The notes beneath the pieces were generated by a model, which saw only the letters and a program-made list of their open reading frames with translations, searched no databases and was not told where the DNA came from. The position numbers and the translations under genes are program-made. A DNA stretch of 64,000 nucleotides. Source: Escherichia phage EJP2. Positions within the stretch are counted from its first letter, which is position 1. Each line of letters opens with the position of its first letter. Where the stretch lies: the sequence record OQ411014.1, one strand, 5' to 3'. Positions 975-64,000 of this stretch are shown here, one piece after another.

Positions 975-1006
975 ACTACTGAATATTTGAAAAAGGAGTT
1001 TCAATC

Positions 1007-1993
1007 ATGTCAAAGCTATATCTTATTGTGGATTCACAAAACTGTTTTCACCGTGCCATCAACGTTGCTCCACGCAGTACCGATGCATGGACTAAGATTG
1101 GTCTAGCACTACACATTACTCTTAGCGGTCTGAAGAAGATGCAAGATATGTTCAACCCTGATCATGTTGTCTTCGCAGCAGAAGGTCGTTCATGGCGTAA
1201 AGACTTCGATGAAGATTACAAAATGAACCGTACTGTAAAAGCTAAGAACCGTACTCCCGCAGAAAAGGAAGAAATGGAAGTAATGTACGAGATGATCAAC
1301 GATTTCCTAGATTTCGTAGATACTCAAAGTAACAGTACTTTATTACGTTCTCCACGGGCAGAAGCGGATGATTACATTGCTCGCTGGATTCAAACTCATC
1401 CAGATGACCAACACATCATTCTCAGTACTGATACTGACTTCCGTTCAATTTTAGCTCCGAACGTTCGTCAATACAATCCAGTACAGGAACTCATGTATAC
1501 CATTAATGGTGTATTTGATAAGAATAACGAACCAGCAACGGACAAACACGGAGAACCTTTAGAAACTCCAGACCCAGAATTTTTACTGTTCCAGAAATGT
1601 ATCAAAGGGGATACTTCGGATAACGTATTCAGTGCTTACCCTGGTGTTCGTATGAAGAGTACTAAGAAAGCAGTTGGTATTCTAGAAGCATACGCAGATA
1701 GAAATCTCAAAGGTTATGCTTGGAACTCATTCATGAATCAGCGTTGGACACGTCATGACGGTAAAGAAATCACTGTAAAAGATGCTTATGCACATAACCA
1801 AATTCTAGTAGACCTTACTAAACAGCCACAAGATATTATCGCTGAACTTGATGAAACTATCTTCGGTCGTGAACCTAAGTCTATTCCTATGGTTGGTGTA
1901 TACTTCTTACGATTTGCTGCTAAATGGGATTTAGTTCACGTACAACGTTCTCCAGAATCGTACGTAAAACTATTCAATAAGAAGGATCTATAA
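1007..1993 (+). CDS. 5'-3' exonuclease / flap endonuclease (T4 RNase H / T5 D15 family)
   Basis: AGGAG RBS; motifs ILSTDTDF and [15 protein letters not shown] resemble the H3TH region of FEN-type 5' nucleases. Confidence 0.75.
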
Positions 1994-1994
1994 T

Positions 1995-2495
1995 ATGCCA
2001 GTACTAAAAATACTAACGGACTATGCATTCATTGCTGAAACTAACGCAGGTGATAAGATTGGTATTCTAATCAATCACGCAGAAGACAGTACTGAACGGA
2101 ATGGGATTGAATTTATTTGTCCAGACGGAACATTAGAATTCAATACTATTGAAGAACTAGAATCTATTATGGGTGAGAAATTCACCTATAAAGAAGTAGA
2201 AACGAAAGATGCGACAACTTCATCTAAGAGTATTGGTGATTATCCTGTAAATGACACAGATAGTGTTTATGATGTACAGGAAGACCCAACAACTGGTTAC
2301 AGTACTTTCTCTAAGAGTAAGAAGTCTAAGAAGCGTTTCTACCCAGGTTGGTTCTTGGTAAAATCCAGTACTGGAACATATAATCCACGGATGACTATCA
2401 GTACTGACATTTATGATGAACGTATTGATACTGATGAACTTTATGGTCCTTTCAAGACATTTATGGAAGTTACATATAAACTAAAAGGACTATGA
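1995..2495 (+). CDS. hypothetical protein
   Basis: Track ORF, 166 aa; AAGGA RBS; stop/start coupling with flanking genes. Confidence 0.55.
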   Translation: MPVLKILTDYAFIAETNAGDKIGILINHAEDSTERNGIEFICPDGTLEFNTIEELESIMGEKFTYKEVETKDATTSSKSIGDYPVNDTDSVYDVQEDPTTGYSTFSKSKKSKKRFYPGWFLVKSSTGTYNPRMTISTDIYDERIDTDELYGPFKTFMEVTYKLKGL

Positions 2496-2496
2496 T

Positions 2497-3174
2497 ATGG
2501 ATCTACAAAAAGCCTCTTCGGAGGCTATTTTTGCAGTTAGGACTATACAAAGCAGTTATTCAAGAAATCTACTATCTAACATCCAAAGACTAATGATATT
2601 AGATATGGTTGAAAGTAAAGCGAATAACGAAAGTATTGTAATAAATCTACATAGACAATCATATAGCAGTACTGCATTAGAAATGTACTTAGTATATGAA
2701 ACGTTCTTTGATAGAACAGTAACTGATAAAACTACATACCTATGTTCTTATAGTAATAGTGCTGGTGGTGAAATTCTCCAAACTATACACCATATACTTA
2801 CTAGTATGAATATTAGTGCTCGGATATCTGGAAACAAATGTACTGACGATAACAATAATAGTATTGTTCTTCTATCAACGAGCGGTTCTGGTATGTTAGG
2901 ATTACGATCTGGCAGTACTATATACCATGATAATAGTAATCTAAGTGAATCAACATCTGAAACTATGATGAGATATTATCGTAACGTTATCATACGTACT
3001 GGAGGATATGATTGTTCAACACTTGAAAATTCCATATCCAACCAGAGATTTTACTCTTTCATGTATAATGAACGCTTTTCTTTTACCACTGAAACCCGAT
3101 TGATAAATAATTTAGGGCATAACGTATATGCTCGTGATTATTTGTTATTGAAGGGAAAAGACGATGAGCACTGA
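2497..3174 (+). CDS. hypothetical low-complexity Ser/Asn/Thr/Tyr-rich protein; small terminase subunit only by position
   Basis: 225-codon stop-free frame in AT-rich DNA; ATGA-type overlap with terminase start at 3164; no recognisable motif. Confidence 0.45.
2512..2533 (+). terminator. hairpin with UUCG tetraloop followed by U-tract
   Basis: GCCTC-TTCG-GAGGC then TATTTTT; lies just inside the 5' end of ORF 2497..3174. Confidence 0.45.
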
Positions 3175-62637: not shown

Positions 62638-62644
62638 AATATAT

Positions 62645-62655
62645 TGTGATATAAT
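62645..62655 (+). promoter_or_regulatory. extended -10 promoter TGTGATATAAT
   Basis: Exact motif copy upstream of the 62666 gene. Confidence 0.5.
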
Positions 62656-62665
62656 AAGGATATGT

Positions 62666-63646
62666 ATGTACGATACGTGTTTTGTGAGTAACGCACCAAT
62701 CACCCCAGGTGACCATGTGAAGTTATTCTATATCGCTGAGAAACGTGATATTTACGATACGAATCCACCAATGAAAAATAAAGGTGCAGGACAAACGTCC
62801 TGTACTGAAGATTATCTCATCATTGGATTTCCGGTTGAAGCAGTATATGATGAAGATGGGGATTACCAACACATTGATTATCCTGGATTTGAAGCTGAAT
62901 ACGTTCGTGATGTGATCACATCTCATTTAGCTTACGGATTCAGTGCAGTGATTGATTTTGGTGAAGCAACGTTATATACTCTTGATAAAATCATTCAAGA
63001 TGAGCAATTGGTTGTATCTCGCAATGGTATCCGCTCAAGGGTTCATAGAGTTGCAGTACTGGATTATATCTATGAAACAGTCCAAGATACGATTGACCCA
63101 TTTATACTGAGTTCGAATTCGTTCAAGCATTTAGCTAAAGCGTCAGTGAAACATAGTTATGCAATGTCATCTAAGACTGAATCAGTACAGCAATGGGCTA
63201 CTGAAAATGATAAGTACGTAAAGTTAGAGAAGATTCAAGACGCACAGGCTGACCAGTTCAAGTTCATTCATGCACTTGATGTTGTGAATACTAAGATACG
63301 ACCATCGTCACAAGTCAGTTCCACATATCATTTGGATAAAATTGCTTCATATCATTTACGCCTAGCACAGATTATGTTGCAGAAAGAATCCAGATTCTAT
63401 GCAAATACAAAATTCAATTTACAAGTGTGTAAGTGCATTACTCTGAAAGATTTAGAAGAGTTCTTCACTAATCACTATGACAGCGAAGTATATGAGAATG
63501 GTCTTTATGCGATAGAACGCTATAAGGAGCTATTCCAGTACGAATCACTTTATCTGGATTATGAATCGAGTAAAGCCTTACGCTTTGAGGTATTCTTTGA
63601 AGCCGTTGACGATCCCACTGTTCCTATCAAAGTGATAGTTACATAA
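62666..63646 (+). CDS. hypothetical protein, 326 aa
   Basis: Track ORF. Confidence 0.55.
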   Translation: MYDTCFVSNAPITPGDHVKLFYIAEKRDIYDTNPPMKNKGAGQTSCTEDYLIIGFPVEAVYDEDGDYQHIDYPGFEAEYVRDVITSHLAYGFSAVIDFGEATLYTLDKIIQDEQLVVSRNGIRSRVHRVAVLDYIYETVQDTIDPFILSSNSFKHLAKASVKHSYAMSSKTESVQQWATENDKYVKLEKIQDAQADQFKFIHALDVVNTKIRPSSQVSSTYHLDKIASYHLRLAQIMLQKESRFYANTKFNLQVCKCITLKDLEEFFTNHYDSEVYENGLYAIERYKELFQYESLYLDYESSKALRFEVFFEAVDDPTVPIKVIVT

Positions 63647-63718
63647 AAATTTACAATTATATGTAAATACGTACAGATGTAGAGGTTTTTTCTTTACATC
63701 TGTGCTATGGGAGAATAA

Positions 63719-64000
63719 ATGAAAGTAAAAGAGTTAATCATTAGACTTCAACAACTTGATCCTGAAGCCGTAGTACGTATACCAGTAACTTCAACGAGTT
63801 ATCCATATGGTAGTACTACTTCGGTGGATATTGACGGTGTTGGGGCTGGTATAGATTGGGACATAAGCATTGTACATGTGTATACAAAATCACCACTTGT
63901 ACATTTTATGCCTAATCAGTACGAGAACTTTATGAATGAATTGTTCGCAGCTAACAAGGCTCGTGATGTTGCATTCAAGAAAGGTATCAAAGATGCCAAA
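63719..64000 (+). CDS. hypothetical protein, 5' part only (runs off the window end)
   Basis: ATG at 63719 with GGGAGAA RBS; frame open to the window end. Confidence 0.5.
   Translation, partial: MKVKELIIRLQQLDPEAVVRIPVTSTSYPYGSTTSVDIDGVGAGIDWDISIVHVYTKSPLVHFMPNQYENFMNELFAANKARDVAFKKGIKDAK

Follow-up and report, generated by a model that had tools for sequence, protein, structure and literature searches.

The 64,000-nt stretch of the Escherichia phage EJP2 genome analyzed here (sequence record OQ411014.1; the window) raises the question of why the palindromic hexamer AGTACT recurs throughout it, inside genes and between them, when phages normally purge palindromes and an over-represented one is very rare among them. 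We found that RaK2-like jumbo myoviruses carry a lineage-specific highly iterated palindrome, AGTACT, preferentially in the form (C)AGTACT(G), which is kept at about one copy per 300 bp by a force that is intrinsic to the phage lineage and acts strand-symmetrically on double-stranded DNA, not on codons or mRNA. An earlier examination of the window, made without database searches (the sequence-only reading), had noticed the word and put its excess at about tenfold.

Excess of AGTACT in the window

The window contains 200 copies of AGTACT, compared with a mean of 22.1 (standard deviation 5.1, maximum 34) in 100 dinucleotide-preserving shuffles, an excess stronger than first estimated. By z-score, the word ranks first among all 4,096 hexamers, and GATATC, the next palindromic hexamer, is enriched just 2.1-fold. 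The local counts of the sequence-only reading proved exact (10 copies in 1000-3000, six in 48060-49000, two in 47100-48060 and one in 1-1000); its nrdA gene is motif-rich as described, with eight copies instead of about seven, and of its two intergenic hairpin sites, the one at 35697 was correctly placed, whereas the second lies at 51397, not 51392. Altogether, 193 copies are located inside called genes and seven outside genes or straddling gene ends; the non-coding DNA of the window (about 4 kb) holds seven sites.

The motif extends beyond six bases. AGTACT is preceded by C in 90 and followed by G in 105 of the 200 copies, and the 8-mer CAGTACTG, for which a test of preference had been proposed, is found 54 times where 1.2 copies are expected, which makes it 46-fold enriched. 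Likewise enriched are the half-sites CAGTAC and GTACTG outside full sites, and the core GTAC (2.2-fold). A maximal-order Markov model expects as many as 170 copies of AGTACT, because the 5-mers AGTAC and GTACT are themselves fourfold enriched; the signal is shared between AGTACT and its sub-words, rather than absent. Distances from one site to the next follow an exponential distribution (mean 318 bp, coefficient of variation 0.995, Kolmogorov-Smirnov p = 0.79) and the index of dispersion is 1.24, so that neither clustering nor periodic spacing, for which the sequence-only reading had proposed a check, was found in the window.

A trait of the phage lineage

By synteny and protein homology, the window represents the module for replication and nucleotide metabolism of a RaK2-like jumbo myovirus, with affinity to RaK2, 121Q, CBB, GAP32, BF and Munch. 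It is syntenic with the corresponding regions of CBB, 121Q-like phages, Munch, XaC1, RaK2 and BF, and the closest deposited genome is that of Erwinia phage Hallingskeid (about 72-75% nucleotide identity). Ten Logan metagenome contigs match 21 kb of the window at 92-99.6% identity, and a scan of IMG/VR yielded no close relatives.

For comparison, the whole genome of Hallingskeid (366 kb) and sampled regions of the other genomes were analyzed. AGTACT is the top hexamer in all clade members sampled, with an enrichment of 6.6- to 10.7-fold: 1313 copies against 125 expected in Hallingskeid, 107 against 12 and 91 against 8.5 in two regions of CBB, 54 against 6.1 in BF, 89 against 13 in Turkey5, 68 against 10.3 in 121Q, 72 against 10.3 in PBECO4, 79 against 11 in EC.P1, 87 against 11 in Munch, 150 against 15 in the Xanthomonas phage XaC1 and 55 against 5.5 in RaK2. 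The window, Hallingskeid, Turkey5 and RaK2 show a strong preference for the flanking C...G; in CBB, Munch, XaC1 and BF it is weak. By contrast, no enrichment was detected in the syntenic but distant Vibrio phage 2.275.O (7 against 7.6 expected) or in PA5oct (1 against 7.8), and neither T4 (8 against 4.4) nor 50 kb of Escherichia coli K-12 (11 against 4.9) was counted as enriched. Phage DNA carries 3.1-3.6 copies of AGTACT per kb compared with 0.22 in E. coli K-12, and 0.8-1.1 copies of CAGTACTG per kb compared with none in the 50 kb of host DNA, that is, phage-to-host density ratios of about 15 for the 6-mer and above 100 for the 8-mer.

Given the clade-wide enrichment and the lack of it in the outgroups and in E. 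coli, the motif is a trait of the phage lineage, not of the host. The hosts of the enriched clade include E. coli, Klebsiella, Erwinia and Xanthomonas. A decoy for a host factor, one of the first suggestions, is unlikely, since the trait does not vary even between hosts as far apart as Xanthomonas and E. coli.

Action on DNA rather than on codons

Coding sequence, in the form of 85 called open reading frames (ORFs), makes up 94% of the window, and AGTACT occurs in its genes 104, 25 and 64 times in frames 0, 1 and 2, respectively. Shuffling synonymous codons within genes yields 29, 8.6 and 14.3 copies (total 52 ± 6, maximum 69), and permuting codons yields 13.8, 4.0 and 8.7, so that about 26 copies are predicted against 193 observed. 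A synonymous shuffle that also held all absent words absent, forbidding GCGC, 27 palindromic hexamers and four other absent word pairs, gave 50.5 ± 7.3. With a prediction of only about 50, AGTACT is not a side-effect of the avoidance of other words, and the three shuffles, together with an excess that is not confined to one frame, rule out a codon-pair or dipeptide artefact. Under neither the dinucleotide-preserving nor the codon-preserving shuffles is the word at or below expectation.

Because these frame-resolved expectations are exceeded, both synonymous choice and the amino-acid sequence must have been bent towards AGTACT. Ser-Thr is the most over-represented dipeptide (observed/expected 1.95, compared with 0.92 for Thr-Ser) and Val-Leu reaches 1.25-1.48, whereas both stand at 1.0 in the non-enriched Vibrio relative; the motif thus visibly shapes protein composition, as had been surmised. 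AGT accounts for 31% of serine codons, compared with 17-21% in non-enriched relatives. Hallingskeid, Munch and XaC1 share a conserved tRNA-Ser with the anticodon ACU (A34), which reads AGU (Table 1). Such an anticodon is unusual for bacteria-type tRNA sets and fits a secondary adaptation to the motif-driven rise of AGT. The force behind AGTACT reshapes codon use, peptide composition and even the tRNA set of the phage.

The tRNA could also be taken, along with the predominance of frame 0 (Ser-Thr), to indicate a cause at the level of translation or RNA, such as an AGU-ACU codon-pair bias, tRNA supply or an mRNA motif. However, the observed counts are 3-4.5 times those of the synonymous shuffles in all three frames, codon permutation accounts for so few sites, the flanks are reverse-complement symmetric and the strongest enrichment is in non-coding DNA. 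The frame and non-coding counts effectively refute this explanation already, and we assign it hardly any probability. The early proposal that the word occurs in every frame and between genes, and hence acts at the DNA level, was borne out on all these counts, including the strand symmetry of the flank preference.

The complete genome of Hallingskeid provides the most detailed picture. Its non-coding DNA (31 kb) holds 158 copies of AGTACT against 10 expected (5.05 per kb, 15-fold), compared with 3.43 per kb in coding DNA, although about 88% of the sites are intragenic; CAGTACTG occurs 412 times against 6.9 expected. Each 5-kb bin contains at least six copies (1.7 expected), with the exception of the short last bin. 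The density peaks at 5-8 per kb among the small early genes of the left 25 kb and reaches its minimum, about 2 per kb, in the structural genes. A strand effect was considered, given that the minus-strand genes of the window are site-poor (three sites in 3.1 kb), yet genes on both strands carry the motif equally across Hallingskeid. AGTACT itself is enriched 10.5-fold; words with a single outer change are found at 2.0-2.9 times expectation, those with a single inner change at 0.7-1.8 times and those with both outer positions changed at 0-2.1 times. This mismatch landscape looks like that of a dimeric reader. All one-mismatch neighbors are at or above expectation except AGGACT/AGTCCT (0.68), and the draining of a neighbor class that a Vsr-like process would leave was not seen, no class being strongly depleted.

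Conservation and turnover of sites

Site sharing was scored in codon alignments of orthologs, with arbitrary hexamers as the control. Sites of the window are also AGTACT in 40% of cases in Hallingskeid (20% for arbitrary hexamers), 17% in CBB (11%), 23% in Turkey5 (12%), 17% in Munch (12%) and 21% in XaC1 (8%). AGTACT sites are about twice as conserved as average hexamers; most positions turn over, with the density remaining constant. Pure decay would require 8-19 sites per kb in the ancestors, and therefore sites must have been created repeatedly. Among the 11 genomes of the lineage of the window, 55 sites are fixed, with three losses per 442 lineage-sites and three gains.

A genome stripped of other palindromes

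AGTACT, the ScaI site, is alone among palindromes in being enriched; of the others, the genome has been stripped. GCGC is entirely missing from the window (53 expected), from Hallingskeid (354 expected) and from eight other phages of the clade, and is found at the expected frequency in the Vibrio relative, PA5oct, T4 and E. coli. Such an absolute, host-independent absence suggests either a phage-encoded GCGC-specific nuclease that shreds host DNA or a very old anti-restriction trait. In addition, about 23 palindromic hexamers are absent clade-wide. The missing sites include those of PstI, PvuII, SalI, XhoI, SacI, SphI, BamHI, KpnI, StuI, PvuI, BspEI, MscI and FspI, along with the type IIS words CGTCTC and GGTCTC and GGWCC-type words. 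Still other words are missing from particular lineages (CTTAAG and AAGCTT from the window; GATATC from CBB, BF and XaC1), and CGTACG is absent from all but the window and Hallingskeid. The enrichment of AGTACT and the absence of palindromes have one common phylogenetic boundary.

Restriction-site avoidance in phages is said to have been described by Sharp in 1986. More recently, it has been treated by Rusinov (2018, PMC6286503). The loss of GCGC and of some 23 six-base palindromes is of this kind, whereas the 9- to 10-fold enrichment of AGTACT is the opposite. The contrast between AGTACT and the usual depletion of palindromes by phages, pointed out in the sequence-only reading, is sharpened by the fact that the same genome depletes other palindromes to an extreme.

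Among non-palindromic words, Hallingskeid is depleted of TAAATA (38 against 164 expected) and TATTTA (89 against 231), as well as ATTTAA and ATTAAT. The depletion of such words, which resemble the core of T4-type late promoters, suggests selection against spurious late promoters in this phage.

DNA modification

If AGTACT were the target of a phage DNA-modifying enzyme, a methyltransferase or other base modifier, the enrichment might simply follow the enzyme, as has been proposed for cyanobacterial highly iterated palindromes and orphan methyltransferases. The clade does possess candidates. Hallingskeid has only two annotated methyltransferases, a 285-aa C5-cytosine enzyme (PF00145) and a 172-aa N6-adenine enzyme (PF05869), and RaK2 DNA has been reported to resist many restriction enzymes (PMC3622015). 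However, bisulfite sequencing of RaK2 detected methylated CpG (PMC3622015), a dinucleotide that AGTACT lacks. Moreover, the presence of the C5 enzyme is patchy: orthologs are found in 121Q-like phages, CBB, GAP32, RaK2, XbC2 and Kaldavass, but none was found in the syntenic region of BF, where AGTACT is enriched ninefold, and Serratia and Erwinia Eneladusvirus phages are missing from the list of matches. The C5 enzyme is thus unlikely to be cognate to the motif. The N6-adenine enzyme is universal in the clade and is 43% identical to homologs from lactococcal phages of the 936 group, of the M.Phi93DAM type, for which GATC methylation has been shown experimentally; as a member of this GATC family, it was likewise rejected. 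The restriction resistance of RaK2, in turn, is probably explained in large part by the missing sites.

The suggestion of a modification function is therefore weakened, the two clade-conserved enzymes mapping to CpG and to GATC-type Dam methylation, and we regard this explanation as quite improbable. No methyltransferase of GTAC or AGTACT type was found among the Hallingskeid annotations, for which specificities are predicted; an unannotated enzyme is possible. On present evidence, the cognate methyltransferase that accompanies highly iterated palindromes elsewhere appears to be missing here.

Association with promoters

In the early region of Hallingskeid, dozens of intergenic cassettes have the form AGTACT-(A)TTGACA-N9-AGTACT-G(G)-(C/T)ATAAT, or a variant with 20-bp spacing, in which paired AGTACT sites bracket the -35 element and abut the -10 element. 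Because of these cassettes, the distance spectrum between sites has peaks at 20 and 22 bp, and only there. AGTACT is present in 31 of the 98 intergenic sigma-70-like promoters, compared with 17% of random intergenic windows, and the fusion TTGACAGTACTG recurs in Hallingskeid promoters. Seventy of the 158 intergenic AGTACT sites of this phage fall within positions 1-20000 of its record. In the promoter identified in the window (Table 1), CAGTACTG at 51396-51403 abuts the -10 element and forms the center of an inverted repeat with 8-bp arms. The homologous promoter contains AGTACT in six of eight lineages, at differing positions.

These arrangements, namely the paired early sites 20-22 bp apart in the first 20 kb of Hallingskeid, the recurrent fusion and the site retained in the promoter spacer in most lineages, would be expected if the motif were primarily an operator or promoter element for an early-to-middle switch, with the intragenic copies representing spill-over or titration. 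A small helix-turn-helix protein adjoining the phage sigma factor in CBB is also compatible with such a role. Nevertheless, we consider it improbable that regulation is the primary function, given that the great majority of Hallingskeid sites are intragenic, that the position within promoters is not fixed and that outside the first 25 kb of Hallingskeid the difference (16% against 10.6%) is not significant. Furthermore, the early region of CBB shows no such architecture despite the 10.7-fold enrichment of AGTACT, which, together with the variable position among lineages, led us to reject a fixed promoter element. The association of AGTACT with promoters is real but modest, and regulation is a possible secondary role.

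A putative reader or biased repair

The interpretation that we favor, if only tentatively, is that AGTACT sites are dispersed recognition sites of a putative phage-encoded dimeric DNA-binding factor and serve as a positive "self" mark. The reader would be a two-fold-symmetric phage protein or enzyme that loads onto, or otherwise handles, phage DNA genome-wide, and the positive mark would stand beside a negative one, the absence of GCGC and of about 23 other palindromes. Of the functions named in the sequence-only reading, DNA binding, compaction and packaging would each be possible roles. The same factor might also modulate early and middle transcription, because the sites often overlap sigma-70-type promoters. 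The effect of each site would be small and selection would act on density, not position, which would account for the Poisson spacing, the rapid turnover, the peak density under the weakest coding constraint and the enrichment of one-off variants.

A precedent by analogy is TF1 of phage SPO1, an abundant phage protein that prefers phage DNA and binds early promoters, much as the proposed reader would act on its own DNA genome-wide and at early promoters. TF1 differs in recognizing hydroxymethyluracil DNA, not a sequence word. In a broader and more speculative version, which we think unlikely as a whole, jumbo phages that form no nucleus and have no hypermodified base would distinguish their own from host DNA by word content: the absent words would let a phage- or host-borne nuclease shred all other DNA, and the AGTACT mark would be read by a protein that protects, organizes or licenses phage DNA and helps to shut off early promoters.

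Several observations weigh against a selected self mark. First, in Asteriusvirus (121Q/PBECO4/EC.P1), losses of sites outnumber gains by 9 to 0, 25 to 1 and 23 to 2, according to parsimony with the groupings (121Q, PBECO4 / EC.P1) and (121Q or PBECO4, EC.P1 / Turkey5). The rate of site loss in this branch is at or above the mean for all hexamers, and AGTACT counts drop from 89 through 79 and 72 to 68 (Turkey5, EC.P1, PBECO4 and 121Q, respectively). Selection thus appears to be absent or relaxed in the 121Q/PBECO4/EC.P1 branch, a natural "off" state. Second, the promoter association is only 1.8-fold over the intergenic background, on top of its loss of significance beyond the early region of Hallingskeid and the plain promoters of the CBB early region. 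Third, no candidate reader emerged: Pfam scans of the nucleases and regulators that are annotated yielded no specific lead, nor did presence and absence relative to the Vibrio phage within the syntenic 25 kb. Finally, all the features that support a reader are also compatible with a non-adaptive drive by biased repair.

This drive is the main rival. Sequence-biased repair or gene conversion during recombination-dependent replication would turn near-sites into AGTACT, leaving functionless copies, as in one account of HIP1, the highly iterated palindrome of cyanobacteria. The anatomy is HIP1-like, a short palindrome in all frames with one-off variants at the outer positions (Elhai 2015, PMC4390886); the density is greatest near the left end and where constraint is weakest; one sub-lineage shows that the enrichment can cease and then decay neutrally; and the phage encodes UvsX/UvsY, endonuclease VII and SbcCD-like proteins. 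Against it stand the lack of a drained one-mismatch class, the lowest value being that of AGGACT/AGTCCT, the failure to find a cognate methyltransferase or Vsr-like gene, and the retention of old sites about twice as well as control hexamers. Furthermore, we know of no repair enzyme with a hexamer specificity of this kind. On balance, we consider the drive possible but doubtful.

Individual loci of the window

The coordinates of individual features are collected in Table 1. At the junction of dda and the next gene, the ATG of the latter is located within the loop of the inverted repeat formed by two AGTACT sites, for which a hairpin of -9 kcal/mol (z = -5.3) is predicted. Genes of the module include nrdAB and those for DHFR, RNase H, Dda, topoisomerase II, a clamp loader and TelA-like proteins; the topoisomerase genes are listed as context only, and no action on AGTACT is claimed for them.

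Table 1. Features of the window and serine tRNAs of related phages.
Feature	Position	Strand	Description
AGTACT copies	1..64000	none	200 dispersed copies, 54 of them as CAGTACTG; about 3.1 per kb
nrdA (ribonucleotide reductase large subunit)	25892..28213	+	Conserved enzyme gene carrying the motif; 8 AGTACT
Inverted repeat at the dda/next-gene junction	35697..35723	+	Arms are two AGTACT sites 21 bp apart
Type II topoisomerase subunits (gp39-like, gp52-like)	39334..42781	+	Context genes of the T4-type replication module
Sigma-70-like promoter	51381..51409	+	TTGACT 51381-51386, 17-nt spacer, TAAACT 51404-51409
Densest stretch of the window	54002..55838	+	Two genes, 14 sites, 7-8 per kb
tRNA-Ser (ACU), Hallingskeid	37674-37764		Position in sampled sequence
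tRNA-Ser (ACU), Munch	34935-35025		Position in sampled sequence
tRNA-Ser (ACU), XaC1	39260-39347		Position in sampled sequence
tRNA-Ser (anticodon GCU), BF	1275-1367		Position in sampled sequence

The words CAGCAG, GCAGCA and AGCAGC are 5- to 6-fold over-represented in the window, are unrelated to AGTACT and resemble in-frame triplet runs encoding Gln, Ala or Ser. The ORF at 3164-5800 (878 aa) appears to be located roughly in the syntenic position of the large terminase of Hallingskeid (547 aa) and may contain an insertion, such as an intein or a fused domain. Comparison of window positions 37124-58080 with the Logan contigs revealed population variants of the phage in which a DUF723 homing-endonuclease-like gene or a 334-aa gene with a faint CapR match is inserted; the insertions are located at about 250-1205 (two contigs) and about 11630-12634 (three contigs). 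These variants are mosaic indels on a backbone that is otherwise 97-99% identical.

Relation to known iterated words and significance

HIP1 of cyanobacteria was reportedly described by Robinson in 1995. AGTACT has the properties of a highly iterated palindrome in the sense of Elhai, a genome-wide excess in all frames and in non-coding DNA with deviations biased to the outer positions. Like HIP1 (GCGATCGC) and the alternate palindromes of cyanobacteria (Elhai 2015, PMC4390886), it is a short, lineage-specific palindrome that recurs every 0.3-1 kb or so, whatever the reading frame and also between genes, its one-off variants are concentrated at the first and last positions, and its function is similarly debated, between selection and a by-product of repair. 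However, HIP1 is an 8-mer of cellular genomes, whereas here a 6-mer core is found in a virus. HIP1 also co-occurs with orphan methyltransferases recognizing its core, whereas the two methyltransferases here point to CpG and GATC. Unlike HIP1, moreover, AGTACT is found in a genome purged of most other palindromes, and one sub-lineage is losing it.

Chi, DNA uptake sequences and uptake signal sequences (DUS/USS) and FtsK-orienting polar sequences (KOPS) are likewise short words scattered in many copies. They extend into coding sequence, where they bias peptides, and their density matters, not their position. As with these bacterial words, AGTACT is far denser in the phage's own DNA than in that of the host. 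They are read by protein machines that treat their own DNA differently, which is the role proposed here for AGTACT. Nevertheless, they are asymmetric, with strand or orientation bias, and their readers are RecBCD, ComP and FtsK, whereas AGTACT, carried by a phage, is palindromic and has no orientation, and its reader is putative.

In the full text of the searchable literature, we found no description of the motif, whether as AGTACT in jumbo phages, as CAGTACTG or as a case of palindrome over-representation in phages; the RaK2, CBB, BF and Eneladusvirus papers and a comparative review of jumbo phages do not mention the motif. This agrees with the initial impression that no described system explains it. 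Highly iterated palindromes are known from cyanobacteria, and a viral, methyltransferase-less 6-bp form in a palindrome-purged genome is a new variant.

The clade comprises more than 70 sequenced jumbo phages, several of them candidates for therapy or biocontrol, with about 1,300 copies of AGTACT per genome and dozens of palindromes missing; ScaI or RsaI should cut these genomes very frequently. If the motif is a by-product of repair, these phages, which evolve fast and are genetically tractable, would provide a model for the HIP1 question, now 30 years old, and the 121Q/PBECO4 branch offers a naturally "switched-off" state for comparison. If a reader protein exists, it would represent a new kind of phage chromatin, self-recognition or regulatory system, and would also be a handle for engineering or detecting such phages. 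Discrimination by words alone, if true, would amount to a sequence-encoded self/non-self system in a virus.

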